A DNA stretch of 32,000 nt from Marivita cryptomonadis (GTDB lineage: Bacteria > Pseudomonadota > Alphaproteobacteria > Rhodobacterales > Rhodobacteraceae). The DNA lies in NCBI RefSeq assembly GCF_002115725.1, contig NZ_JFKD01000024.1, positions 1 to 32,000 on the forward strand. Direction: 5' to 3'. The notes under the pieces are model-generated. The model was not told the DNA's origin and did no database searches. It worked only from the letters and a program-made list of their open reading frames with translations. Below are positions 3,448 through 15,726 of this stretch, in pieces; position 1 is the first letter of the stretch, and every line of letters begins with the position of its first letter. Position numbers and translations under genes: made by a program.

Positions 3448-4029
3448 TTACTGGTCAATCACTTTCAGCTGAAAAAATCTTTGGTCAATAAAAGTCTCAA
3501 TGGAATAGGTGTTTAGGAAATGAGCGCTCGCTTCCAGAGGGCGCGTGAGAACCTTTTCAGTCAGCGCCACGATGCCACTAATCAAGATGCCCGGTGCCAT
3601 CCATAGCAACGGATAAAGTGTGAAGCTATCCGCCCAGAAATTCAGGTAGAGCATAGGCCCAACAAGAAATGGCAAGCCAATGGCGAAGAGATAGCGCAGC
3701 GGCTTTATTTTCAGCGCTATCGCATCGGCAAGTTTGTTGTGGTCATCATACACTTGGTTTTCCCAAGCGAGGTATTCGTCCTCCAATTGCCCGCGAAGGT
3801 AATGGCCGCAACGGCAATAGTCGCGGGTCAGATACTCCGCTTCACCACAGGACGCGCAGACCAACGCATTTCCGTTTATGCTCTTCGGGCGGGAGGGGTC
3901 AGGCTGCTTTGCCGCTTCCTTGAGATCGAGCCCATGTTCGTCGAGGAAAAGGTCAAGCTTCTCAGATAATGAGACTTTCCGTGGCCTTAGGACGTGAACA
4001 TTAGCGGGTAAATCAGTGTTAGACATCAT
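3448..4029 (-). CDS. Hypothetical zinc-ribbon membrane protein (193 aa)
   Basis: Track ORF. CASCGEAEYLTRDYCRCGH gives a CxxC...CxC zinc-ribbon pattern. Two hydrophobic helices follow (LRYLFAIGLPFLVGPMLYLNFW, LYPLLWMAPGILISGIVALT). Its TAA stop (3450..3448) directly abuts the methyltransferase ATG, and its ATG overlaps the upstream XRE stop (ATGA at 4026..4029). Confidence 0.6.
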   Translation of the reverse strand: MMSNTDLPANVHVLRPRKVSLSEKLDLFLDEHGLDLKEAAKQPDPSRPKSINGNALVCASCGEAEYLTRDYCRCGHYLRGQLEDEYLAWENQVYDDHNKLADAIALKIKPLRYLFAIGLPFLVGPMLYLNFWADSFTLYPLLWMAPGILISGIVALTEKVLTRPLEASAHFLNTYSIETFIDQRFFQLKVIDQ

Positions 4030-4460
4030 GCCACCAACCCCAAAATGCTGTCTATGCGTTGTGTATTGGGGGCGCTTTCGGTGCTGCTAAAGGCATCGGA
4101 ACCGAGAAATTCAGCAAAGAGAAAATCAATGGCGTCCCATTTCTTTTCTGGTGTCACGCTCAAACCGCGTTCACCAATACGATGCTCAACCGCGAGGCCA
4201 ATCTTGCGGTAGGCCTGCGTGACCTCTTCGTGTCGCCTGCTCTTACCGCTTTCTGTATCGCCTTCCAGTATCCAGAGCGGGTCAACATCGAACTCTTGGA
4301 ATATCTTCAGGAGCAGCGAGCCCGTCAGGTCCCTTTGGCCTCGTTCGTAGTATTGATAAGCGCTACGACTGATCTCGAGTCGCTGCGCCATCTCCTCCTG
4401 AGAGAGGTGCGCTTGGCTTCTTACCGCCGAAAGACGATTTCCTAGGCCCATAATAGTCAT
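4026..4460 (-). CDS. XRE-family helix-turn-helix transcriptional regulator (possible controller of the RM operon)
   Basis: HTH_3-like LSQEEMAQRLEISRSAYQYYERGQRDLTGSLLLKIF. I prefer the ATG at 4460 (MTIMGLGNRL) because AAGAGAG lies about 7 nt upstream. The track ORF extends to 4493. Confidence 0.8.
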   Translation of the reverse strand: MTIMGLGNRLSAVRSQAHLSQEEMAQRLEISRSAYQYYERGQRDLTGSLLLKIFQEFDVDPLWILEGDTESGKSRRHEEVTQAYRKIGLAVEHRIGERGLSVTPEKKWDAIDFLFAEFLGSDAFSSTESAPNTQRIDSILGLVA

Positions 4461-4497
4461 GAACAACTCTCTTACTAGTTGCGCCGACCACAAAGCT

Positions 4498-4869: not shown

Positions 4870-5075
4870 CGCGGCACACACCCATCATGGCCAGCGAGAC
4901 GACCGCCGCGCGGTTGCTCGATTTACGGACGAACGAGTTCAAGGCTTTGGTCGATGAAGGTCACTTGCCACCGGGGCATGAAATTGCGCCCGGTGTTGTT
5001 CGTTGGGATACTGAGGTTCTGAAACGAATTTCAGCAGGGGATGTGACAGAGCTATGGGATCAAATTCAGTGGTAG
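4866..5075 (+). CDS. Second small excisionase-like / hypothetical protein
   Basis: 69 aa with TAARLLDLRTNEFKALVDEGHLPP...RWD. ATGA overlap with the preceding gene, and its 3' end overlaps the integrase start. Confidence 0.5.
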   Translation: MTRHTPIMASETTAARLLDLRTNEFKALVDEGHLPPGHEIAPGVVRWDTEVLKRISAGDVTELWDQIQW

Positions 5076-6088
5076 GCCGACGCAAGAAATACCTTTGGCG
5101 GCATCCGTCTGGCCGTTGGTATGTGCGCAAGAGCGTCAACGGGAAGATGATTTATCTTGGACGTATCACTGCTGAAGAGGGCACGGCTGAATTCGACCGC
5201 CAATACTGGGAGATTTTAAGTGGCAAAAAGGCTAATGTGAAAACGTCATGGACTGCGCTCATCGGCGCAATGCGAGAAACAGATAAGTGGGCCGGGTTTT
5301 CCCCCCGTTACCGACGTGACCTTGATAATGCCTTCGAGTATCTGACAGAAAAAATCGGTCACATGGATGTGTCTCGGCTGACCGAAGCCGATATTTACGA
5401 GGCGATGGACCAAAATCGCCATCGGGTCAGGTTTGCCAATTACCTTCCCACAGCGATCAGCATGTTATGCAAGTTGGCGATCCGAAAGCGTTGGCGCGAC
5501 AACAATCCAGCAACCGAAATAGAACAGCTCAAAGTTCCAGAAGGTCGCAAGAAGCCACACCTGCCGTGGACCGATTGGGCTGTCGAGAAGATGCGGGAAG
5601 AGGGCGCGCCTTTGCCCCGCCTGATTTTTGAGATTGGTGTGGGGAGCGTGCAGCGCCCCGGTGACTGGGTGGATTTTCAATGGGGCGACTATGACGGCGA
5701 TACCCTCAAGCTGCGCCAGAATAAGACAGATACGGTCCTTTCACTGCCCTGCACGATTGCACTCAAGGCGGCACTCGATAGTGCGAAAGCTGATCTTGGG
5801 TTTGCGCCCCATCCATCGCGCCACATCCTGACGCGGGCTGATGGTTCCAAAATGGACTATCACGCGATGGCGCGTGTGATGGTGCGTGACCGTAAGCGAT
5901 TGGGCCTTATGGCCCATGACCAACACGCCTTGCGGTATCGCGGCGTGATGGAATTGGCGTGGGCGGGCTGCACTGACGATGAAATCGCCAGCTATAGCGG
6001 CCACACATCCAAAGAGATGATCATCAAATATGCAGGGGAGGCTCGGCAAATCATGCGTGCGAGACAGGCGGTAGCAAAGCGCAAATGA
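5054..6088 (+). CDS. int: Tyrosine-type site-specific integrase (element A)
   Basis: 344 aa. Catalytic pattern visible: VQRPGD (Arg), HALRYRG (HxxR), SGHTSKEMIIKYAG (His...Tyr). Ends 86 nt before the tRNA-Cys 3' fragment. Confidence 0.85.
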   Translation: MGSNSVVGRRKKYLWRHPSGRWYVRKSVNGKMIYLGRITAEEGTAEFDRQYWEILSGKKANVKTSWTALIGAMRETDKWAGFSPRYRRDLDNAFEYLTEKIGHMDVSRLTEADIYEAMDQNRHRVRFANYLPTAISMLCKLAIRKRWRDNNPATEIEQLKVPEGRKKPHLPWTDWAVEKMREEGAPLPRLIFEIGVGSVQRPGDWVDFQWGDYDGDTLKLRQNKTDTVLSLPCTIALKAALDSAKADLGFAPHPSRHILTRADGSKMDYHAMARVMVRDRKRLGLMAHDQHALRYRGVMELAWAGCTDDEIASYSGHTSKEMIIKYAGEARQIMRARQAVAKRK

Positions 6089-6174: not shown

Positions 6175-6218
6175 TGGAGGCGAGTACCGGAATCGAACCG
6201 GTGTACACGGATTTGCAA
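6175..6218 (-). repeat. Displaced 3' half of tRNA-Cys (att direct repeat, distal copy)
   Basis: TGGAGGCGAGTACCGGAATCGAACCGGTGTACACGGATTTGCAA matches 15653..15696 at 42 of 44 positions. Both mismatches fall in the T-loop. Identity stops at the anticodon loop, so this is not a complete tRNA. Confidence 0.85.
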
Positions 6219-6379: not shown

Positions 6380-6400
6380 TTACTTCAAAGTTTGAAGTAA
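6380..6400. repeat. Island palindrome copy 1: TTACTTCAAAGTTTGAAGTAA (centre G)
   Basis: Read directly. Followed by GGCGAGCTTC then ATG at 6411, which opens only a 2-codon ORF. Confidence 0.9.
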
Positions 6401-6812: not shown

Positions 6813-8027
6813 ATGCAAATGCGGTGTGTTTTACATATTGGACTTGAGAAAACTGGCACCACTTACATTCAAAATTCATTGTATGAGAATGCATCAGAAC
6901 TTTATGCTGATGGAGTTTATTTGCCGGAGCGCTTAGGCATTTCGAACAATTGGAAAGTGCCGTCTTACTTTAAAAGCGGTTATGAGGGCTATAATTTAAA
7001 AAAAATCGGCGTTGAGTCGAATGAAGAAAAAAAAGAATATTTCAAAGATTTTTTTGATGACTTTATGTATGAAGTTAAAAATGCGCGAAACTGTGATAAT
7101 TTTCTTATAACTTCAGAACATTTCCACAGTAGCCTGCGCACTCAGATTGAGATAGATGCGTTGAAATCGTTTCTTGACCAATTCTTTTCGGATTATTTGG
7201 TTATTTGCTATTTTAGGGAGCAATCTGCACTGGCAAAATCTCTGTATAGCACACATTTGAAAAGTGGAGCAACGAACACTTTCGACAGCTTCTTAGAAAC
7301 CGTTGTGCCAGAAAATTACTATTACAATTTTTTGCAGATTGCAAAGCAATGGGCGCAAGCGTTTGGGGCAGACAACTGCTGCTTTCGTGTATATGATCAC
7401 TCTGCCTTTATTGGTAAAGATATTTTTGCTGATTTTCTGCACGCTATTGGCGTAGCTAGCTTTAAGTCTATAACTCCAATTCAGGCGCGAGTTAATCATT
7501 CTTTATCGCCAATGCAGTGCATACTGCTTCGTAAATTAAACGAAATTATTCCACATTGGAATGACAAGAGGGGAATTTCTGAAGTAAACAAAAATTTAAA
7601 GGAGCAATTACTGAATTTGGATTTTGCGAAAAAGGCGCATTTGGATTTGTTTGATACAAAGCCCGTTTATCAAAAATTTGAAAAAATAAATACAGAATTT
7701 GAGCAAAAATATTTACCTGACGCCAGGCTGCCTCTGCTTGAGAGGGCTATTACACAGCCCGAAACGAAATATGCAAGTGGCGAAGTTGTTTCAATGTTGT
7801 TGGAAATTGAGGAAATGTTTTTGCTCGAAGTGAAAAAGCACGAACGTGTAAAGGTTGAAGAGCGCCCAGCAGCACTAAAAAAAATAATTGATGTACTAGA
7901 CTACAAAGTTCATAAGTGGATATCTGAAACAAGTTTAGCGCCGGCTGCAACTAGAAAGAAGTTTCAGCCAATTACAGAACGGCGGCGGGCAAAATTGATG
8001 CGAAAATATAATAGTATAGATTTCTAA
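6813..8027 (+). CDS. Sulfotransferase-fold P-loop protein (putative), 404 aa
   Basis: N-terminal LHIGLEKTGTTYIQ resembles the PAPS 5'-phosphosulfate-binding loop. FLITSEHF and ICYFREQSALAKSLYS resemble the 3'-phosphate-binding region. This is the most AT-rich gene in the window. Confidence 0.5.
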   Translation: MQMRCVLHIGLEKTGTTYIQNSLYENASELYADGVYLPERLGISNNWKVPSYFKSGYEGYNLKKIGVESNEEKKEYFKDFFDDFMYEVKNARNCDNFLITSEHFHSSLRTQIEIDALKSFLDQFFSDYLVICYFREQSALAKSLYSTHLKSGATNTFDSFLETVVPENYYYNFLQIAKQWAQAFGADNCCFRVYDHSAFIGKDIFADFLHAIGVASFKSITPIQARVNHSLSPMQCILLRKLNEIIPHWNDKRGISEVNKNLKEQLLNLDFAKKAHLDLFDTKPVYQKFEKINTEFEQKYLPDARLPLLERAITQPETKYASGEVVSMLLEIEEMFLLEVKKHERVKVEERPAALKKIIDVLDYKVHKWISETSLAPAATRKKFQPITERRRAKLMRKYNSIDF

Positions 8028-8224
8028 GCCATCACTGAAATTAATGATTGCTGCGATTGAGGCTTCAACGCTTTCAATAGTTTGGCTCAGTGTCAATTTT
8101 GGATTTATAATTATTTTTGTATTTCTCTTATGTATCAAGGTGTAATACACCCAACTCATGGATATATTTGCTAAGCGGCTGTCGCGCAGCCTTAAGCTGG
8201 TCGGCGTGAAAACTTGCATAGCTT

Positions 8225-8253
8225 CTCGTTACTTCAAAGTTTGAAGTAACGAG
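8225..8253. repeat. Island palindrome copy 2, extended: CTCGTTACTTCAAAGTTTGAAGTAACGAG (core 8229..8249, centre G)
   Basis: 29-nt perfect palindrome around a single central base. Lies between convergent genes, 9 nt after the stop of the TGT-like gene. Confidence 0.9.
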
Positions 8254-8261
8254 CAGTTGCG

Positions 8262-9542
8262 TCAATTAAAAGCTTGCTCGATTTGTAGCAAACCTTCTGC
8301 AATTTCGAAGGGTATGCGACTTTGATCTCCTAGTTTTGGGTCAAACACCAAGTCACATGCGTCAGTGAAGGTTTTGTGGTAAATGTACTGATTGTGATTT
8401 GCCAGAAGCTGCTCGCTAAAGTTATCCAAATATTCCTGCGCCATTACATCCTTTTCAACCATCATCTCCTCTATACTCACCCGCTGTAAGGCAGGAGAGT
8501 TGCTGTCTGGCAAAAGGTATGTGCGAGATGTTGCATTGACGTATTTGGGGTTTTGGACCAGTCCCTCAGTTTTTATTCGCCATGTTGCAATTGCGTCTTC
8601 CAGTGTGGGCATTTGGCAAAGTTGACGGAATTCTCCAGCAGTTCGGAATGGGCTGCTACTGTCAAAACTTATTTTCAAACCAGCATTGCCAGTTACTCGG
8701 CGCAGTTCGTTTTGGATTGCGGTAAAATATACAGCTTCTTCCGCTGAGCTGGTGCCCAGTATATGTATCCATTCTGTTTCGTCCAAAAGCTTGTCATTCA
8801 GCAACTTTGTTAGCCAGTATAGCACACTGGTTAAGTCTTTCTTTGTATCGCTGCCCAATGCCCACCCACGTGTAAAGGTGAATGGCGTTACTGCTTTGTA
8901 CCAAGCGTTGCCAGTATCATCGCCAATGTCTTGTAAGACGTTCAGATACTTGGCACGTGCTCCTGTGTCTTTGCCTGAATTTTTCTCAAAATACCGAAGA
9001 TTGTGAACGCTTAAATCAATGAGTTGATCCACACTCAATTTTCTGAGTGCTGATTTTCGGTCTCTGGTAGCCCAAATCGGCATGTCCAATGTCATTGCAT
9101 AATCGCAATATACATCGAGCCAACGTAAATATTGCGCTTTCAAATCCGAGTTTTGCATCCATTTTCTGCAAAACTCATCATTTTTGAGATTTTGCCAATT
9201 TTTCGAGCCTGCAAATTTGAACTTGGCTATCTGGTATCCGCCGCTGTCTCCAATCACCGTTGTGCGTTTGGGATCACGTGTGCTTACAATATCGGCGGTA
9301 GAGAGGTGGGAACTGCTAAACAAGCCTGCGCTGTATAGGGCGTATTTGCTGTGCCAAAGGGCACTCTGGTCGTTGAAGTAATTCAAATCGTTGAGTGTAA
9401 GGTTGCCTGGTAGTTTTCCACCCCTTACTGCTTGACTAGGCATGCAAGCCAGCTGTGCATATTTTTTCTGCAAGCTGGGTAAATATACGGCATATTTGTC
9501 ATATTTTTCGGAAAAATTCACACCGGGCAAATTGCTGTTCAT
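8262..9542 (-). CDS. tRNA-guanine transglycosylase (TGT)/DpdA-superfamily base-exchange enzyme homologue, 426 aa
   Basis: VIGDSGGYQIAKF (DSGGYQ at 9231..9248) matches the TGT catalytic Asp / stacking Tyr motif. MTLDMP resembles the FDEC Asp, RGWALGS resembles GYAVGGL, and HILGTSS...ISFDSSSPFRTAGEF resembles YLMGVG...DMFDCVLPTRSGRNG. No CxCxxC...H zinc motif is evident. Confidence 0.7.
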   Translation of the reverse strand: MNSNLPGVNFSEKYDKYAVYLPSLQKKYAQLACMPSQAVRGGKLPGNLTLNDLNYFNDQSALWHSKYALYSAGLFSSSHLSTADIVSTRDPKRTTVIGDSGGYQIAKFKFAGSKNWQNLKNDEFCRKWMQNSDLKAQYLRWLDVYCDYAMTLDMPIWATRDRKSALRKLSVDQLIDLSVHNLRYFEKNSGKDTGARAKYLNVLQDIGDDTGNAWYKAVTPFTFTRGWALGSDTKKDLTSVLYWLTKLLNDKLLDETEWIHILGTSSAEEAVYFTAIQNELRRVTGNAGLKISFDSSSPFRTAGEFRQLCQMPTLEDAIATWRIKTEGLVQNPKYVNATSRTYLLPDSNSPALQRVSIEEMMVEKDVMAQEYLDNFSEQLLANHNQYIYHKTFTDACDLVFDPKLGDQSRIPFEIAEGLLQIEQAFN

Positions 9543-11230
9543 TCGCTGGCCTCCTGTGTTTTGAGCGTGTTTGAAAACACAGTTTCATCACGTTTGCCAT
9601 TGGTGTCAGCTGCTGGAATAAAGTGCTGATAGTCAGCGATGGACGTGCTGTAGTTGATGTTCATCACATGTGAATTTGCTTGAATTGTAATTTTATCCGT
9701 ATCCAATACGATGTTGGGCAAACTACTGAACAACAGAACGAAGTCTTTTGCTGCGCATTGGAAGGAAGCGCTGGCGTCTTGTTTGAAGCTTGGAGTGATA
9801 CCAGCAAGCGCTACTGAATAGCTGAGTTGGTACTGCTGAGCTTTTTCATCCCACCAAGCATGCAACACAAGCTCGTCTTCAGTCAGCATCACCATTACTG
9901 TGCGATTTTCCGGTTTGTTGTGTTTACCGGCAATTTTGTTAATCCAAGCCGTTAAACACACGGCATCAAACGTTGCTAGCCACTGCTTGCTGACTTGCAT
10001 TGTCCAATCGTACTCAATCTGACTGGGATTAGAGACGAATGGTTGTTGGATAGCGCTTTGATCCGACAGCTTTGTTACATCGTAAAAATGAAGACGTCGG
10101 TTTTTGGAACTGGCAGTGTCGGTGAGCGTGATGTTGTAGTCGGCAACACGTGTGCTGGTGTCGGGTGTATAGCCTGCACTTGGCTCGGCTGTGTAAAGCG
10201 TGAGTTTGTTTTTTCCCAGCAACTCAGCTTCGATCCACTGCCTGTCTTTTCCAAACAAAGTGGCTTCGGTGGCAAAATCGAAGTCTTGTTTGCGTTTGAT
10301 TTGGGATACAACACTGACAGTTGTGGGACTTTTGCTGACAAGGATGTCGCTGTGCTCAGGCCGTGTGCGTAATGTGGTGTTCACTTTGATCTTTTCAGGC
10401 TTTTGTCCCTGCTTTTTGCGTACAATAGTGCTCTCTGCAAAATATCGTTTGCGATGTTTTTCCAGCTTTTTGGGTAAGGCGTGTGGCTCCAAAGCCTCTG
10501 CGATCAATCGCAGATTGGGTGCCACTGAAGTTCGATCAATATTGGTGCAGTAATCTAAAGCCAGCGCAAGAGCAGCTTCGCTGTAGTCAGTGCCAACAAT
10601 GTCGATGGTGCCATGTTCTGTGCGGCGGCCTAGCATGACAATTAGCCCGTTGTCGTTTGTGACTGCATTGGGAAAATTATTGAGTGTAGCCAATGGCTGT
10701 GAGTTCGATGCGGCTTCAATGCGTTGCGTGCTAAGAGCTTGCGCAACTGGCGTTTTCTTCGCAGGTGCAGGCGCAGTTTCACTGTCTTCGTTGGTATCCA
10801 CTTCGTCGGCATACAGCTCTTTTTCGCCTCGTAAGCCACCAAGCCCACCACTGGCATGAATAAAATTGAGTAAGTGAGCGCGAGGATCATTTTGGTAAGC
10901 TTGAAGATTATCAGAATACTGCTCATCAATCCGTTGCATGCTTTTTGCCCAATTACTGATGGCGCTGGCACGTGTGCTTGCATCAACATTCCAAACCAAA
11001 CGTAAGAGGGCGAAAAAATTTGGCTGATTACTTTGTGGTTTACGGACTGTAATGCCGGCGTCTTTGTATTTAGTGGCCAAATATTCCGGATCTTCATGCG
11101 CCTCTCGCCACCACAAATACGCATCAACAATGCCTTCGTATAGTTGCTGTCTGCTGTTCTTATACGTTTCGGTTTGCGTTTCAGCCGCTGCCTTCAGTGC
11201 GTCCAGTTTCTGATCCAATGCGTGCGTCAT
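9539..11230 (-). CDS. Hypothetical protein, 563 aa, translationally coupled partner of the TGT-like gene
   Basis: Long track ORF. GGAG lies 7 nt before its ATG. Its TGA stop overlaps the ATG of the next gene (ATGA at 9539..9542). I recognise no Walker, ParB or DGQHR motif. Confidence 0.75.
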   Translation of the reverse strand: MTHALDQKLDALKAAAETQTETYKNSRQQLYEGIVDAYLWWREAHEDPEYLATKYKDAGITVRKPQSNQPNFFALLRLVWNVDASTRASAISNWAKSMQRIDEQYSDNLQAYQNDPRAHLLNFIHASGGLGGLRGEKELYADEVDTNEDSETAPAPAKKTPVAQALSTQRIEAASNSQPLATLNNFPNAVTNDNGLIVMLGRRTEHGTIDIVGTDYSEAALALALDYCTNIDRTSVAPNLRLIAEALEPHALPKKLEKHRKRYFAESTIVRKKQGQKPEKIKVNTTLRTRPEHSDILVSKSPTTVSVVSQIKRKQDFDFATEATLFGKDRQWIEAELLGKNKLTLYTAEPSAGYTPDTSTRVADYNITLTDTASSKNRRLHFYDVTKLSDQSAIQQPFVSNPSQIEYDWTMQVSKQWLATFDAVCLTAWINKIAGKHNKPENRTVMVMLTEDELVLHAWWDEKAQQYQLSYSVALAGITPSFKQDASASFQCAAKDFVLLFSSLPNIVLDTDKITIQANSHVMNINYSTSIADYQHFIPAADTNGKRDETVFSNTLKTQEASE

Positions 11231-11240
11231 CCCAAGCTCC

Positions 11241-11261
11241 TTACTTCAAACTTTGAAGTAA
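11241..11261. repeat. Island palindrome copy 3: TTACTTCAAACTTTGAAGTAA (centre C, opposite polarity to copies 1 and 2)
   Basis: On the minus strand it reads TTACTTCAAAGTTTGAAGTAA-GGAG-CTTGGG-ATG. It therefore abuts the Shine-Dalgarno sequence of the 563-aa gene. Confidence 0.9.
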
Positions 11262-11381
11262 CGTGATGCTGTGAAAAATTTTCTCAATGATAAATATTGT
11301 GCGAACGCCCATTTAACAGGCAAGATCAGCGAGCGGCAGTTGACGCAGCACCAGTACTTATGGATTTGGCAGGGGAGTTTG

Positions 11382-11537
11382 ATGCGCATACAAGAGATTG
11401 AACGCAAACCAAAAAAACGCAAAGCGGGCAAAGCCAGCGATAAGACGGATTGGGAACGGAATTTGACAAAGCTGCGCAGTAAAAAAAGACAGCTGAAACC
11501 ACAAAGCCCAGTTAAGCCGGTGAGCTTGGTGCGCTGA
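11382..11537 (+). CDS. Possible small, very basic protein (51 aa)
   Basis: GGGGAG lies 5 nt before the ATG. Sequence is MRIQEIERKPKKRKAGKASDKTDWERNLTKLRSKKRQLKPQ. The track ORF begins at 11271. Support is weak. Confidence 0.3.
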   Translation: MRIQEIERKPKKRKAGKASDKTDWERNLTKLRSKKRQLKPQSPVKPVSLVR

Positions 11538-11646
11538 AGATGTAATATCTTGCAAAATTACATGGTTTGAGTGACGCGGAACAAACACCGCTGTAAAATA
11601 ACGCTCCAAGCAATTGCACACATAGTCGAAACAACGAGAACGAAGA

Positions 11647-12225
11647 TCAGTAATCCACCAGCTCTACAGCGCTGCGCAGCTTGTTCTCATTCAAATCAAT
11701 ATAGCGCATGGTGGTGTTGAGATGACTATGACGGGCAAGCGCTTGGATCACACGTGCGTTGATGCCTTTATCCGCAAGCTCCGTCACAAACTGACGACGC
11801 CCACTGTGCGAACTCGCACCAGTGATACCAGCAATCTTGTACAAGTGCTGAAACAAGTTCACCATCGTCTGCGCTGTAAATCCCCCACCCTGCGCACTGA
11901 AGATCAATGGCGAGCTGGGTTGGGCGATGCGCTGCGGATAGGCGTCTGCATATTTTTGCAACGCCTTGCGCAATTTGCCGTTCACAAGCGCCGTGCTGCT
12001 GGCGTTCCCTTTGGTCTGTTGGGCGGACATGTAAATGGTATCCAGCACATTGCCTGCCGCATCAAAAACATCGCCAACACGCAGCGCAGCAATCTCGCAG
12101 GCGCGTAACCCTGCATAAAAACTCAACGCCACTGCTGTGTGATTTCGAACTGCATGACGCTGTGAATTGATCACACTGTGCAAACGACGACGCTCAACTT
12201 GCGTCAACAAACGGGCTTGCTTCAT
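11647..12225 (-). CDS. Short catalytic-domain-only tyrosine recombinase, FimB/FimE-like in size and layout (~192 aa)
   Basis: LTQVERRRL...VRNHTAVALSFYAGLRACEIAALRVGD (Arg I), SSHSGRRQF (HxxR), LARHSHLNTTMRYID (His...Tyr). GGAGAGA lies 6 nt before the ATG at 12225. The track ORF starts at 12291. Confidence 0.75.
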   Translation of the reverse strand: MKQARLLTQVERRRLHSVINSQRHAVRNHTAVALSFYAGLRACEIAALRVGDVFDAAGNVLDTIYMSAQQTKGNASSTALVNGKLRKALQKYADAYPQRIAQPSSPLIFSAQGGGFTAQTMVNLFQHLYKIAGITGASSHSGRRQFVTELADKGINARVIQALARHSHLNTTMRYIDLNENKLRSAVELVDY

Positions 12226-12378
12226 TTGCTGTCTCTCCAAAAAGATGTGGCTGTGTACACGCACAGCATAAATCCTAATCTTTGGTGGCACGATGGTTTT
12301 TGTAAAATCTGCTAAAGCACTGACGTCATTGATTTTATGAGCAAATGATTAAGGAATATGTATTGTATAATCTTTCGC

Positions 12379-12681
12379 TCAACACACCTCTGCAATGTGA
12401 TGCTGTGTTCGCAAATACTGCATCAGCTGCGCTTCAACGTCTGCCAATACCTGCTGCTGTTGGGTTGTGAGCTGAGGGCGGAAATGACAACGGCGTAATG
12501 CACGCACGCACTGTATGGCGGTTAGTATGGTGAAATCTTTGTTTTGATACTTGCGCAGCGAATACGTACTTCTGCTTCTGTTCAAAAACTGCTCGCTGAA
12601 CTCTTCACCGCTTAAAACCAAATCCACCGCTTTAAGCTGAGTGTATACCTGCTGCATGAGGGGGGCTGTGTTTGCGTCCAT
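12379..12681 (-). CDS. Hypothetical protein (~100 aa)
   Basis: Track ORF. AGGAG lies 6 nt before the internal ATG at 12681 (MDANTAPLMQQ). Confidence 0.5.
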   Translation of the reverse strand: MDANTAPLMQQVYTQLKAVDLVLSGEEFSEQFLNRSRSTYSLRKYQNKDFTILTAIQCVRALRRCHFRPQLTTQQQQVLADVEAQLMQYLRTQHHIAEVC

Positions 12682-12720
12682 GTCGTCTCCTGTTCGTTCT
12701 TCCACCGTGTATTCATCTTG

Positions 12721-12744
12721 TCAGTGTCAGTGTCAGTGTCAGTG
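12721..12744. repeat. Hexanucleotide tandem repeat (TCAGTG)x4
   Basis: Four perfect units read directly, about 40 nt upstream of the 12681 start on the minus strand. Confidence 0.9.
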
Positions 12745-12897
12745 GTTGTTTGGGTGTTGGTGTTAATTGGGTATAGTAAAGATTGGCGTTGACTGCGCAG
12801 CCCAACACCAATCTCCCACACCAAATTGTCCTGCGCCTTTACCTTGCTGTATGCCAAGCACTTCAGCAATCTGCCTAAATTGAGAATTGTCGATGCC

Positions 12898-13506
12898 TTA
12901 GCGTTGCTGCCTTGCACGTGCCCGTTGTTGGAGTTGTTCAATTTGCCAGTCCAATGCCTGTAATGCGCCGTTGAGTTGAGAACTTGAGATTTTGTTGCAT
13001 ATGCGTGTGACGAGTTTTGTGTTGTGAATATCTGCCTGTAAATTTGGTGTTAAGGGCTGAAATGACGTCAGCTCTGCGATGGTGTCGGTTTGCTGCTGCT
13101 GCACACTTTTGGATGTGTATGCTGCTGCATTGCTGGCATCACTAACCGGTGTGATCCAATTGTATTTTGTCCCCGCAGTGCGCACATGAATGTCGCTCCA
13201 AACTGCATTGAGAATGGCACAAAGCGGTTTGGTGGCGATGGGCGCTGTACACATGAAATGCAGGTGAATGTTTTGACCACATGCGCCGAATTCCGTAAAG
13301 CACCAGCGCTGTATTCCCATGCCTTTGCGTGCTGCATGTCCAAACAGCATCACGTCCATCCTGTGCCAAAATGTTTTGAAGATGGGCAGAGCTTGATTGG
13401 CGTGAACAAAACGTCCGTTGTCAAACTTTAAGACACCAACGATCTTGTAGTGTGGCTTCTCAAGCTCTGCGATCCAACCACCATGTGTGCGCTTGTTCCA
13501 ATTCAT
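12898..13506 (-). CDS. HUH-endonuclease-like (Rep / inovirus Gp2-like) protein, 202 aa
   Basis: Motifs appear in Rep order: WCFTEF, then NIHLHFM (HUH), then AAAYTSKS (YxxK). Motif spacing is atypical, so the call is tentative. Confidence 0.4.
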   Translation of the reverse strand: MNWNKRTHGGWIAELEKPHYKIVGVLKFDNGRFVHANQALPIFKTFWHRMDVMLFGHAARKGMGIQRWCFTEFGACGQNIHLHFMCTAPIATKPLCAILNAVWSDIHVRTAGTKYNWITPVSDASNAAAYTSKSVQQQQTDTIAELTSFQPLTPNLQADIHNTKLVTRICNKISSSQLNGALQALDWQIEQLQQRARARQQR

Positions 13507-13626: not shown

Positions 13627-14052
13627 ATGTCACATCTTGCCAAACTAAACCTAAAATCCGTTCAACGCAGTGTGCAAAAGGATCCTGCCATACAACGCAG
13701 GGAAAAGCTTTGTTTGGCGTTGGAACGGCAGCTGCTGGTAGTGGAAGCTGCGCTGACGGGTTCACAATACACAGTTACAGAAAAACGCTGGCGTGAGAAC
13801 GAGTTGGGCGAACGAGTGCTTGTGGATGTACAGCGAACGGTAAGGCGCTGGTTTTTTGAGCAAGATGGTGGGTGGTACGTGCAATGCAAATATGGCAGCC
13901 GTGTTCTGAACATCTACGGCAAAAGCAACGCTGTATTCGTCAACGAGCTTGCTGATGTGCGTCCTGTGCTGGAAGCCTTTTATGCAGCAGCTGCTGCTGG
14001 TGAATTGGACAAGGCGATTGCTGAATTGGGCCGTAAAAAGGGCAACAGCTAA
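13627..14052 (+). CDS. Hypothetical protein, 141 aa
   Basis: Track ORF with AAGGAG 9 nt upstream. Divergent from the Rep-like gene. Its TAA stop lies inside palindrome copy 4. Confidence 0.6.
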   Translation: MSHLAKLNLKSVQRSVQKDPAIQRREKLCLALERQLLVVEAALTGSQYTVTEKRWRENELGERVLVDVQRTVRRWFFEQDGGWYVQCKYGSRVLNIYGKSNAVFVNELADVRPVLEAFYAAAAAGELDKAIAELGRKKGNS

Positions 14053-14070
14053 CTTCAAACTTTGAAGTAA
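14050..14070. repeat. Island palindrome copy 4: TAACTTCAAACTTTGAAGTAA (centre C, one arm mismatch that creates the TAA stop)
   Basis: Read directly. Lies between convergent genes. Confidence 0.85.
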
Positions 14071-14078
14071 GGCGCTGA

Positions 14079-14108
14079 GCAAGGCTTGGCGTCTTGCCTG
14101 TTTATTTG
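14079..14108 (+). terminator. Weak hairpin (GCAAG...CTTGC) followed by CTGTTTATTT
   Basis: Short stem plus a T-rich tail after the 141-aa gene. Confidence 0.3.
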
Positions 14109-15517
14109 AGTATTTTCAACAAGCTGTGCTGGTCTATCAAGTCAGCGTTCATTGCCTCCAATGCCAACATCCGAATATCAGCTGTGGGTTCATAACCGTC
14201 CGCATGTACGCCCAACGCTGCCAAAAAGGCTGACTGGTCTATTTTGCCGGATTTCAACATCTCAAAAGCAAGTGCAGCAGGATCGGTGGAGGTGTTGGGC
14301 TTGGCCTTTTTTCCATCTCTGCCGCTGTGTTGATCTGCGTTGATGAGAGGACTGTATTTACTGTAGTGCCGGTCCAGCATCAAAGTGCTGTTTCCCATTT
14401 GCTTGCTCAGCGCATGTGTGCTCATGCCACGTTCCAAGTCTTGCGTCGCATAAAAATGCCGCCAGCTGTACAGTGTTCGATCCAACCCATCTGCGCCAGT
14501 CTTCAAATTCAACTCTTGCAGTAATGTGTTAAAAGCACGATTAACGTTGGCAACTCGGATCACTTCGCCCAAGCGTGTCGTCCAAATTGGCTCATTGCTT
14601 TTTGCAGTAACAAGCTGATCGAAAGTTGTGTGAGTAAGGCGAGGGTTGAGCTGGCTTTGGCGGTCCAAAAAATCAACGACGCGATCACGTGCAATGATTT
14701 TGCGTTTTTTGGTTTTGCCATCCACGTTGATAGCCAAATAGCGCTCACCATCTTTTGTGTGCCATTCGATGTGTTGCCAACATAGCGCTAACGCTTCTTT
14801 GCCGTGTCGTATGCCAGTGTTCGCTAAAAACAGAACATAGTTGCGCAGCGTTTCTCGTGTTGCCGCTGCTTTAGCGTCTTTGGTTTTTTGGTGAAAGCTG
14901 CGCAGCGCTGTGTAAATAGTTTTGTATTCGTCCAGCGTGTAGCTACCCCTGCCTTGCGTCTCCACGCCTTTGTTGAGCAGGGTAGGGCGCAAAGATTTGT
15001 TCAGCCAGCCACGCAGCTCTGCTTCATCAAAAACGCGATTAAGCGCAGCGTTGTGGTTATTGATGGTGCTTTGCGCAAGCTTGCGTCCTGCTTGCCGTTC
15101 TCGCCACGTGTCGAACTGCATCAGCGCTGCCAAATCAATTTTGGCAACATCGGTTTTTTCGAAGTAGGGGATCAAGTACCTTTGCAAAGCAGAAATGTAA
15201 TCTTTGTAAGCAATTTTGCCGGTGCCAGCATCCAGTTCGTCTTGCATGCGCTTTATGGCGAATTCAGCGACATGCTTAAACTTGCGAGTATTTGCGGGCA
15301 GCTTGTTTTTAAGGCGAGCCTGTGTTTCATAATACAGCTCTAAGGCTATCTCTTTCGCCTCCTCTACATCGTCTGTTCCTGTGCTTTTTACGTCACGTTT
15401 GCTGTTGGGCAAAGTTATGCGAGCGTACCAATTGTTGCTGCCTTTGCGCTTGTCCAAACGCAGCTTTTTGTGCACCTGCACAGTTTTTGCACCGTAGCTC
15501 ATCGCATCAAAATCCAA
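14102..15517 (-). CDS. int: Tyrosine-type site-specific integrase of island B, 471 aa
   Basis: FLANTGIRHGKEAL (Arg), YSWRHFYATQDL, MGNSTLMLDRHYSKY (His...Tyr). Adjacent to intact tRNA-Cys. The start is either TTG 15517 or ATG 15502. Confidence 0.85.
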   Translation of the reverse strand: MDFDAMSYGAKTVQVHKKLRLDKRKGSNNWYARITLPNSKRDVKSTGTDDVEEAKEIALELYYETQARLKNKLPANTRKFKHVAEFAIKRMQDELDAGTGKIAYKDYISALQRYLIPYFEKTDVAKIDLAALMQFDTWRERQAGRKLAQSTINNHNAALNRVFDEAELRGWLNKSLRPTLLNKGVETQGRGSYTLDEYKTIYTALRSFHQKTKDAKAAATRETLRNYVLFLANTGIRHGKEALALCWQHIEWHTKDGERYLAINVDGKTKKRKIIARDRVVDFLDRQSQLNPRLTHTTFDQLVTAKSNEPIWTTRLGEVIRVANVNRAFNTLLQELNLKTGADGLDRTLYSWRHFYATQDLERGMSTHALSKQMGNSTLMLDRHYSKYSPLINADQHSGRDGKKAKPNTSTDPAALAFEMLKSGKIDQSAFLAALGVHADGYEPTADIRMLALEAMNADLIDQHSLLKILK

Positions 15518-15652: not shown

Positions 15653-15726
15653 TGGAGGCGAGTACCGGATTTGAACCGGTGTACACGGATTTGCAATCCG
15701 CTGCGTCACCACTCCGCCAACTCGCC
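15653..15726 (-). tRNA. tRNA-Cys (anticodon GCA), 74 nt with encoded CCA
   Basis: Folded by hand. Acceptor GGCGAGU/ACUCGCC, anticodon stem GCGGA/UCCGU, loop UUGCAAA, T arm ACCGG-UUCAAAU-CCGGU, discriminator U, then CCA. Confidence 0.92.

Follow-up and report, generated by a model that had tools for sequence, protein, structure and literature searches.

A DpdA-like enzyme and a partner with a predicted clamp fold form the backbone of small tRNA-integrating elements

The gene pair and its island

We describe a pair of overlapping genes in the alphaproteobacterium Marivita cryptomonadis, located in a stretch of 32,000 nucleotides (nt) that we refer to as the window (contig NZ_JFKD01000024.1, positions 1 to 32,000). 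A check of its open reading frames (ORFs) places an enzyme of 426 amino acids (aa) at 8262..9542 and, directly upstream of it, a partner protein of 563 aa at 9539..11230, both on the minus strand. The enzyme, which has 100% identity to MCRY_19295 of this species, is predicted to be a relative of tRNA-guanine transglycosylase (TGT) and of the DNA enzyme DpdA, the partner is predicted to carry the fold of a sliding clamp, and the two belong to the backbone of an integrative element. The stop codon of the partner gene and the start codon of the enzyme gene share the sequence ATGA, with an AGGAGG Shine-Dalgarno sequence 8 nt upstream, and this overlap agrees with the translational coupling that had been proposed in a preliminary description of the locus.

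The pair lies on an island bounded by direct repeats of 44 nt from the 3' end of a tRNA-Cys gene, found by repeat search at 6175-6218 and 15653-15696 and enclosing about 9.5 kb. The left copy (attL, 6175..6218) is 95% identical, and the right copy (attR) is the 3' 44 nt of the tRNA-Cys(GCA) gene itself (15653..15726, minus strand), which is the integration site. The GC content of the island is 0.455, compared to 0.56-0.60 in the flanks. The features of a tRNA-integrating island, namely repeats of a tRNA 3' end, an integrase gene beside the tRNA gene and a deviant composition, are all present here.

Fold and catalytic residues of the enzyme

The preliminary description had read five TGT hallmark strings in the enzyme, and we find all of them in the order claimed: DSGGYQ at residue 99, LDMP at 152, GWALGS at 226, HILGTSS at 260 and FDSSSPFRTAGEF at 293. 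This order is beyond chance because the profile of the enzyme family aligns by hhalign to both E. coli Tgt (89% probability, E 2.3e-6) and DpdA2 of Vibrio phage nt-1 (94% probability, E 1.4e-7, 202 columns) with the motifs in register. The exemplar of DpdA2 is reportedly VPFG_00171 of phage nt-1, said to have been treated by Hutinet in 2019 and Cui in 2023. In the alignment to Tgt, D153 of the enzyme corresponds to the Asp of FDEC, Q204 to the Gln of IIQG, GWALG to GYAVGG and D294 to the nucleophile of MFDC, and D99 aligns with D89, the Asp of DSGG, as well as with the DSGG motif of DpdA2. D153 and D294 fall on Asp counterparts in DpdA2 too, where D294 matches the Asp of YDSS, and the motifs H-x-L-G and S-(F/Y)-D-S-S are common to the enzyme family and nt-1 DpdA2. 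In DpdA the equivalents of D99 (in DSGG(F/Y)Q), D153 and D294 are D95, D130 and D256. The three Asp residues, which are invariant in TGT and DpdA, serve as general acid/base, in base recognition and as nucleophile (PMC10164549). An alignment of 83 family members, reaching down to about 21% identity and including proteins of jumbo phages, shows D99, S100, G102, H260 and D294 to be invariant and G101, Q104 and D153 to be nearly so.

The AlphaFold2 model of the enzyme, built on the family alignment, is a confident alpha/beta barrel (predicted local distance difference test, pLDDT, of 92.2; predicted template modeling score, pTM, of 0.93). Only two PDB entries match its fold at E <1e-3, the TGT 4leq (5e-6) and the DpdA 7ui4 (1.7e-5), and the lower-ranked matches are generic TIM barrels. 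Among viral protein models the best match is a protein of a Vibrio jumbo phage, with a template modeling (TM) score of 0.75, followed by an annotated phage TGT (Motura), R9TGF0 of nt-1 and actinophage proteins named "queuine tRNA-ribosyltransferases"; nt-1 DpdA2 is itself a structural match (E 9e-8). Because of these fold matches, the conserved residues and the profile alignments, we place the enzyme in the TGT/DpdA superfamily and predict it to be catalytically intact, and its closest characterized relative is DpdA2, a DNA enzyme.

The zinc site CxCxxC...H of TGT is absent from the enzyme, as had been noted, and the family has no conserved Cys. The sole remnant of the TGT 'EHN' motif is an invariant H383-N384, in a region aligned by a weak, non-significant profile stretch. 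Thus far the confident barrel, the retained catalytic Asp residues and the lost zinc site sustain the earlier description of a TGT/DpdA-like enzyme. Of the profile and structure checks that it proposed, the structural one returned a TGT/DpdA fold in the model, and the Pfam one returned nothing: the enzyme fails the gathering score of PF01702, with no match even at E<=1, and 1 of the 83 family members reaches E 0.007. Searches of PDB sequences with the single enzyme sequence or with a profile of 63 sequences also gave no matches. With the broader profile of 83 sequences, 38 of the 39 PDB sequences reached were TGTs, each below threshold, and DSGGFQ, (T)LD, LNVLQG and GWA were in register with them. 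The family itself is large, with at least 280 clusters at 90% identity and at least 873 clusters at 50% identity (E<=1e-3). Searches by tblastn from the window enzyme, from a jumbo-phage homologue or from DpdA2 do not connect the family to DpdA2, and the connection is seen by profile comparison only.

These comparisons also bear on the question of whether the enzyme could act on RNA. It might be an element-encoded TGT that alters host tRNA, at a Q34-like or other position, with the partner being unrelated. The tRNA enzyme 4leq is the best PDB fold match, and nearly all PDB sequences reached by the broad profile are tRNA TGTs. However, the ligands of the TGT zinc subdomain are gone, and the profile matches better to DpdA2, a DNA enzyme with which H-x-L-G and S-(F/Y)-D-S-S are shared while both are absent in TGT. 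Additionally, the obligate partner has a predicted DNA-clamp fold and the phage relatives lie within DNA replication and modification modules, as described below. We therefore consider a tRNA target unlikely.

The partner protein

The partner was described earlier as an unknown protein in which no Walker, ParB or DGQHR motif was recognized. At the level of sequence this holds, as there is no match to it in Pfam, NCBIfam, PADLOC or PHROGs, no match of its family profile to PDB sequences even at E<=10, and no Walker A or DGQxR motif. The structural model adds a recognizable fold. It has a mean pLDDT of 77 and divides into three parts on the minus strand, an N-terminal helical module (aa 1-135, 10826..11230), a linker (aa 136-230, 10541..10825) and an alpha/beta C-terminal half (aa 231-563, 9539..10540). 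In the C-terminal half the block-mean pLDDT from about residue 231 to 556 is mostly 80-96 and is lower at 260-280 and in the C-terminal tail. Foldseek returned 329 PDB matches at E<=1e-3, and among those listed, the best 50 of the 329, all are PCNA-type clamps. The lead match is PCNA of S. pombe (1.5e-8), and the TM-scores normalized to the target are 0.42-0.60 among the matches listed. Two tandem clamp domains are present in the model at residues ~231-556, and five basic columns are conserved in the helix formed by residues 254-263.

The linker has pLDDT <50, yet it carries a conserved segment, LVVMLGRRN..G.IEIVG, in which V198 and R202 are invariant and M199, R203, N204, E210 and G213 are kept in 90% or more of the sequences. 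At its C-terminus the protein reads Y-x-x-(F/Y)-I-P-A-A, which we take to be reminiscent of the C-terminal strand of PCNA. From the model, then, the partner would be a protein with a clamp fold to which a novel helical module has been joined. It is not DpdB-like, in keeping with the earlier description, because the predicted fold is that of a PCNA-type clamp, with no ParB fold and no DGQQR/NTPase motif. No clamp-loader gene was recognized among the island genes in family scans.

The fold of the partner also weighs on a more remote idea, that the enzyme places a 7-deazaguanine on a protein or small molecule in the manner of the QueC-family deazaguanylation in the type IV cyclic oligonucleotide-based anti-phage signaling system (CBASS) and in QatABCD. 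Non-canonical uses of queuosine-pathway folds in defense are documented (PMC13279940), which lends the idea some plausibility. Against it stand the lack of CBASS or Qat components and of PADLOC matches here, the DNA-clamp fold predicted for the partner and the nearest relative of the enzyme, which is a DNA enzyme. We regard it as extremely unlikely.

Conservation of the pair among genomic loci

A survey of co-occurrence among homologues had been suggested for this pair, and it shows that the two genes are syntenic elsewhere. Our sample is 80 genomic loci among about 90 loci scanned, mainly from Rhodobacterales, Sphingomonadales, Rhizobiales, Caulobacterales and Burkholderiales (including Polynucleobacter and Limnohabitans); individual loci are cited by L numbers. 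Of all companions of the enzyme gene, the N-terminal module of the partner is conserved most widely, and it adjoins that gene in 61 of the 80 genomic loci and in 67 of the roughly 90 scanned (jackhmmer). The clamp domain is present in 41 of the 80, and a clamp partner lies directly upstream of the enzyme gene in 46-55 loci. The module occurs in three arrangements: joined to the clamp and in the same direction as the enzyme gene, as in the window; as a stand-alone protein of about 250 aa; and at the head of a divergently transcribed protein of 510-900 aa that otherwise has no known domains, Pfam scans of these alternative partners having found none. The preliminary description had named three findings that would count against it, namely no TGT barrel, non-syntenic homologues and a DpdB-like partner; because the pair is syntenic elsewhere, and with the barrel and the non-DpdB partner described above, none of them was found.

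In seven Rhizobiales loci (L050, L053, L055, L056, L058, L059 and L081, ~7200-9950, minus strand) the module heads a divergent protein of 860-900 aa with no recognizable domains. This protein may be an alternative DNA-handling partner.

The elements of Rhodobacterales have a common gene order, which is tRNA, integrase, DUF6641, HUH-like gene, DUF6626, short recombinase, clamp partner and enzyme. Over all 80 loci the short tyrosine recombinase is found in 41, DUF6641 in 46, the HUH-like gene in 7 and any mobile-element marker in 54. Four further elements of 8.8-13 kb (L018, L020, L031 and L038) have attachment (att) repeats from tRNA-Cys, tRNA-Phe or tRNA-Met, and in L031 the repeat lies 135 nt past the enzyme gene. 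The pair is thus part of the backbone of tRNA-integrating elements of 9-13 kb in Alpha- and Betaproteobacteria, and not their cargo, because the order is shared across elements and the companions are conserved. The foreign AT-rich island with recombinases that was described earlier is borne out by the att repeats and the GC content, and it is the placing of the pair as cargo of a defense island that has to be given up, as the only variable gene is a 404-aa ORF that was found in 0 of the 80 loci. The label of a defense module likewise finds no support, because the pair has no conserved companion of the restriction, nuclease or effector kind.

Relatives beside 7-deazaguanine genes

Although the enzyme was called an orphan, and is one on this island, relatives of it sit within clusters of 7-deazaguanine genes. 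Genes for the synthesis of preQ0 or G+ adjoin the enzyme gene in L011, L037, L052, L057, L075 and L078. The most compact example is L037, from an alphaproteobacterial metagenome-assembled genome (MAG), where a tight operon at 8358-13125 consists of the clamp partner, the enzyme, QueF (PF14489, 2.6e-29), QueC (PF06508, 1.4e-69) and a Vut_1/YhhQ-like transporter. Its flanks are TetR and major facilitator superfamily (MFS) genes, with no mobile-element markers.

Among isolated phages the enzyme family is found in 11 PA5oct-like Pseudomonas jumbo phages, in Sinorhizobium phage Phosso and in Vibrio phage 2.275.O, and every copy in them is annotated as hypothetical. The phage homologues sit among genes for DNA polymerase, primase and helicase. 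One gene separates the homologue of Vibrio phage 2.275.O from the QueF that follows it, and behind QueF come a YhhQ-type transporter, QueC, an amidotransferase (GATase) and GTP cyclohydrolase I (FolE). PA5oct has a QueE-like gene six genes downstream of the homologue, and it has been credited with a system for deazaguanine synthesis and incorporation by Iyer et al. (PMC7824862). No other candidate insertase was found in the PA5oct group with E. coli Tgt or DpdA2 as the query. On the phage-like MAG contigs L052, L057, L075 and L078, FolE lies near the enzyme gene, and L078 also has QueE. We count this association of the relatives with Que genes as substrate context for the enzyme. Since Que genes and a transporter stand beside relatives, an incoming base is implied.

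Two further alternatives can be weighed here. One is that the pair is a replication or maintenance module, in which the clamp protein would serve HUH rolling-circle replication as a processivity or recruitment factor and the barrel would not exchange 7-deazaguanine at all. That a HUH Rep-like gene and the short recombinase travel with the pair, and that phage homologues adjoin PolB, primase and helicase genes, would fit such a module. However, the complete catalytic set of a transglycosylase is conserved, the L037 pair shares an operon with QueF, QueC and a transporter and is not on a mobile element, and the HUH gene accompanies just a few of the loci. This makes a replication role very unlikely.

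The other is that the enzyme is a TGT-fold DNA glycosylase acting as a defense or counter-defense effector, which would excise guanine or modified bases with no insertion while the clamp scans DNA. The pair is on a mobile island, base excision is the first step of the TGT mechanism, and DNA glycosylases are established defense proteins (bioRxiv 10.1101/2025.10.29.685425). Set against this are the absence of a PADLOC match, the position of the pair in a fixed backbone set instead of variable cargo, the link of relatives with Que biosynthesis and a transporter, and the presence of the same family in lytic jumbo phages. We think an excising enzyme distinctly unlikely.

Two proteins that recur beside the enzyme gene of these relatives should be recorded. 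The first is a conserved ORF of about 245 aa upstream of the long phage-type enzyme, found in L009 (4912-5658, gp170 of PA5oct), L011 (4322-5041), L052 (9255-9974) and L078 (9228-9944) and also in L060, L075 and L080. It adjoins the enzyme in MAG loci, is separated from it by one small gene in PA5oct and by two in the Vibrio phage, and in L078 and PA5oct comes directly after PolB. Its last residues, Y(I/V)LPAQ(S/T)K, are similar to the YxxFIPAA at the C-terminus of the partner, and by this resemblance it might be a separate clamp of the phage type. By hhalign it reaches 1% probability against the partner, with the last strand alone aligned, and 0.7% against gp45 of nt-1, and a PDB profile search with it gave no clamp match. 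The second is a protein of about 350-420 aa with a weak glycosyltransferase-1 match, which recurs near the enzyme gene in loci of the phage type and the Rhizobiales type (L009 at 7617-8678, gp167 of PA5oct; L050, L052, L055, L057, L075, L077, L078, L080 and L094). This is a hint that the inserted base may be decorated further in such lineages.

Base exchange on DNA

Our preferred explanation, which we hold to be probable on the strength of the alignments and models, is that the pair is a clamp-tethered DNA guanine/7-deazaguanine transglycosylase using preQ0 or preQ1 made by the host. It would be a two-component base-exchange machine for DNA and the core payload of the ~9.5-kb element at tRNA-Cys. 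In the mechanism that we propose, D294 would attack C1' of a deoxyguanosine in DNA to give an intermediate in which enzyme and DNA are covalently joined, with D99 as the general acid/base and D153 reading the base, and a 7-deazaguanine from the host queuosine pathway (preQ0 or preQ1) would then be inserted. The PCNA-like C-terminal half of the partner would bind or encircle DNA and its N-terminal helical module would hold the enzyme, so that the partner would fill the DNA-handling role of the ParB-like ATPase DpdB with no NTPase. Element DNA, and possibly host DNA too, would be marked with 7-deazaguanine. By analogy with phage DpdAs and with the phages that draw on host precursors for a lone DpdA, the role of such a mark would most likely be protection against restriction during transfer of the element.

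A DNA target is suggested by the nearest characterized relative, which is a DNA enzyme, by the clamp fold predicted for the partner and by the phage homologues amid replication genes. Family scans of the island found no preQ0 synthesis genes and no ParB-like gene, as the preliminary description had it, and because the island lacks the former, reliance on precursors from the host is the natural reading. There is a precedent for this in phages that encode DpdA alone, the "singleton DpdA" (PMC6884629).

Several observations weigh against the explanation. The enzyme has zero matches in Pfam, NCBIfam, PADLOC and PHROGs even at E<=1, and its TM-scores against TGT and DpdA are low, at 0.34-0.46, so that the kinship to them is distant. 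The clamp fold of the partner is predicted from its model, and no similarity to clamps is seen at the level of sequence. The window as a whole holds no preQ0 or G+ synthesis genes, and no feature of the element accounts for directing modification to particular DNA. Finally, the enzyme gene of L037, otherwise intact, has a single in-frame TGA (10229-10231) eight codons before DSGGYQ.

A bolder proposal is that elements of ~9-13 kb exist chiefly to write 7-deazaguanine in DNA by means of a new clamp-tethered DpdA subfamily. This we consider possible but somewhat doubtful. The hosts of these elements are aquatic and soil Proteobacteria (roseobacters, Sphingomonadales, Rhizobiales, Polynucleobacter and Limnohabitans). 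If clamp-tethered exchange is true, the pair would include the first clamp-coupled, NTPase-independent base-exchange enzyme, and the family would supply the missing DNA insertase of the PA5oct-like and other jumbo phages.

Comparison with known systems

The recognized DpdA subfamilies are bDpdA and DpdA1 to DpdA4, and enzymes of this type are treated as a signature of 7-deazaguanine DNA modification (PMC10516641). DpdA2, DpdA3 and DpdA4 were likewise found by HHpred only (PMC10516641, PMC6884629). With DpdA2 the window family shares the TIM-barrel fold of the TGT superfamily and the aligned motifs DSGG, (L/F)D, H-x-L-G and S-(F/Y)-D-S-S. Both are missed by the Pfam TGT family and by BLAST from other DpdAs, and both have relatives beside preQ0/preQ1 genes. 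However, DpdA2 of nt-1 inserts preQ0 into DNA in E. coli and works alone there (Table 3 of PMC10516641), whereas the window family has an obligate upstream partner, and DpdA2 belongs to T4-like phages, whereas the window family is carried for the most part by integrative elements of Alpha- and Betaproteobacteria.

The bacterial Dpd system, which consists of DpdA, DpdB, DpdC and the restriction genes dpdD-K (PMC10164549), is alike in having a TGT-like transglycosylase on a genomic island together with a DNA-handling partner, in the three conserved active-site Asp residues and in the use of host preQ0, which is predicted for the window pair. It differs in its partner, which is a ParB-like ATPase, whereas the window partner has no DGQQR/NTPase motif and a PCNA fold in its model. 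The window island also has no DpdC and no dpdD-K restriction module (scans with Pfam, with PADLOC and of the island genes), its enzyme has no DpdA match in PADLOC or NCBIfam, and its ~9.5 kb are mainly mobility genes.

Tgt (PF01702) has in common with the enzyme the fold, the Asp catalytic triad, the Gln of IIQG and the G-x-A-x-G loop. The enzyme differs from it in falling below the Pfam threshold, in having no zinc site and about 12% identity, in its partner and context, and in its predicted DNA substrate. The partner, in turn, is like PCNA and other sliding clamps, including PCNA of African swine fever virus, in the two-domain clamp fold predicted at ~231-556. Unlike them it has no detectable sequence similarity to clamps, carries in addition a fused helical module of 135 aa and a linker of ~95 residues, and is coupled to a base-exchange enzyme instead of a polymerase, with no clamp-loader gene recognized in the island.

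We found no paper on the bacterial members, on a clamp-fold partner of any DpdA or on the element family, and a literature search on DUF6641/DUF6626 and on the pairing of a clamp with DpdA gave nothing. The phage members may have been recognized implicitly by Iyer et al. (PMC7824862). What is new is a DpdA-like subfamily, a type of partner and a genomic niche, and the pairing probably marks a new way of writing 7-deazaguanine DNA modification. Current surveys of this modification, being based on curated hidden Markov models, would miss the subfamily because it is invisible to the profile libraries tested, at a size of at least 873 clusters at 50% identity. The members missed include abundant freshwater and marine bacteria and Pseudomonas jumbo phages that are candidates for therapy. 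The clamp-fold partner suggests that a base-flipping transglycosylase can be delivered along DNA in another way, by a clamp versus the ParB-like ATPase DpdB. The place of the pair in the backbone of a minimal integrative element also raises the question of whether DNA hypermodification is the strategy of the element for transfer or survival.

Other genes of the island

The companions of the pair in the window lie between it and the tRNA gene. The short tyrosine recombinase (214 aa, 11647..12291, minus strand; PF00589, 2.4e-22) is a backbone gene, as are the DUF6626 protein (108 aa, 12379..12705, minus strand, from family scans) in the elements of Rhodobacterales and the DUF6641 protein (141 aa, 13627..14052, plus strand; phrog_31551). 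A tyrosine integrase of 471 aa (14102..15517, minus strand), with PF00589 and SAM-like domains, lies beside the tRNA-Cys gene and is collinear in L016, L018 and L020. The HUH Rep- or relaxase-like protein (202 aa, 12898..13506, minus strand) has a weak match to PF23343. Its invariant H-x-H (H81, H83) and invariant Tyr (Y130, in AYTxK) are the signature of HUH Rep/relaxase proteins, and a homologue search with it gave 5 matches, all unannotated. By this signature the element, once excised, may replicate or be mobilized as a circle. Among 14 whole-contig loci no terminal repeats of circular excised contigs were found.

The variable ORF of 404 aa (6813..8027, plus strand) has a GC content of 0.37 and no family matches. 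Its N-terminal HIGLEKTGTTYIQ is what we take to resemble a P-loop or sulfotransferase motif.

Outside the island, a second tyrosine integrase (5054-6088, plus strand) ends 87 nt before attL, near an HTH_3 gene (4026-4493, minus strand), at a GC content of 0.51-0.55. No third att copy lies within the window. This region may be a remnant or the edge of another island in tandem at the same tRNA-Cys.

Palindromes around the pair

There are 4 copies of the palindrome TTACTTCAAA-N-TTTGAAGTAA in the window, where 0 are expected by chance (palindrome scan). Copy 1 is at 6380..6400, and copy 4, with 1 mismatch, is at 14050..14070 between the DUF6641 and integrase genes. The other two bracket the pair, as had been pointed out in the preliminary description: copy 2 (8229..8249) is 13 nt past the stop of the enzyme gene, and the right arm of copy 3 (11241..11261) abuts the Shine-Dalgarno sequence of the partner gene. 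Intrinsic terminators were considered and rejected, as the stems are AT-rich with no T-tract and the terminator scan does not call them.

The same palindrome core brackets the pair in L001-L004 (in L001 at 8263-8279 and 11628-11644), where the proteins are only ~50% identical to those of the window. Other Rhodobacterales elements have symmetric variants, such as TTACATCGG/CCGATGTAA, 32-49 nt upstream of the partner gene, and the changes between elements are symmetric in both arms. The loci with such palindromes include L016-L020 and L039, upstream of the partner gene, and L023 and L025-L027. The palindrome ahead of the ribosome-binding site of the partner gene is perfect, specific to the element and kept in position. 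The elements of Sphingomonadales have a different palindrome at the same upstream position. Judged by this pattern the palindromes are a conserved cis-element, an operator or an RNA hairpin, and they could serve as operator, loading or control sites.

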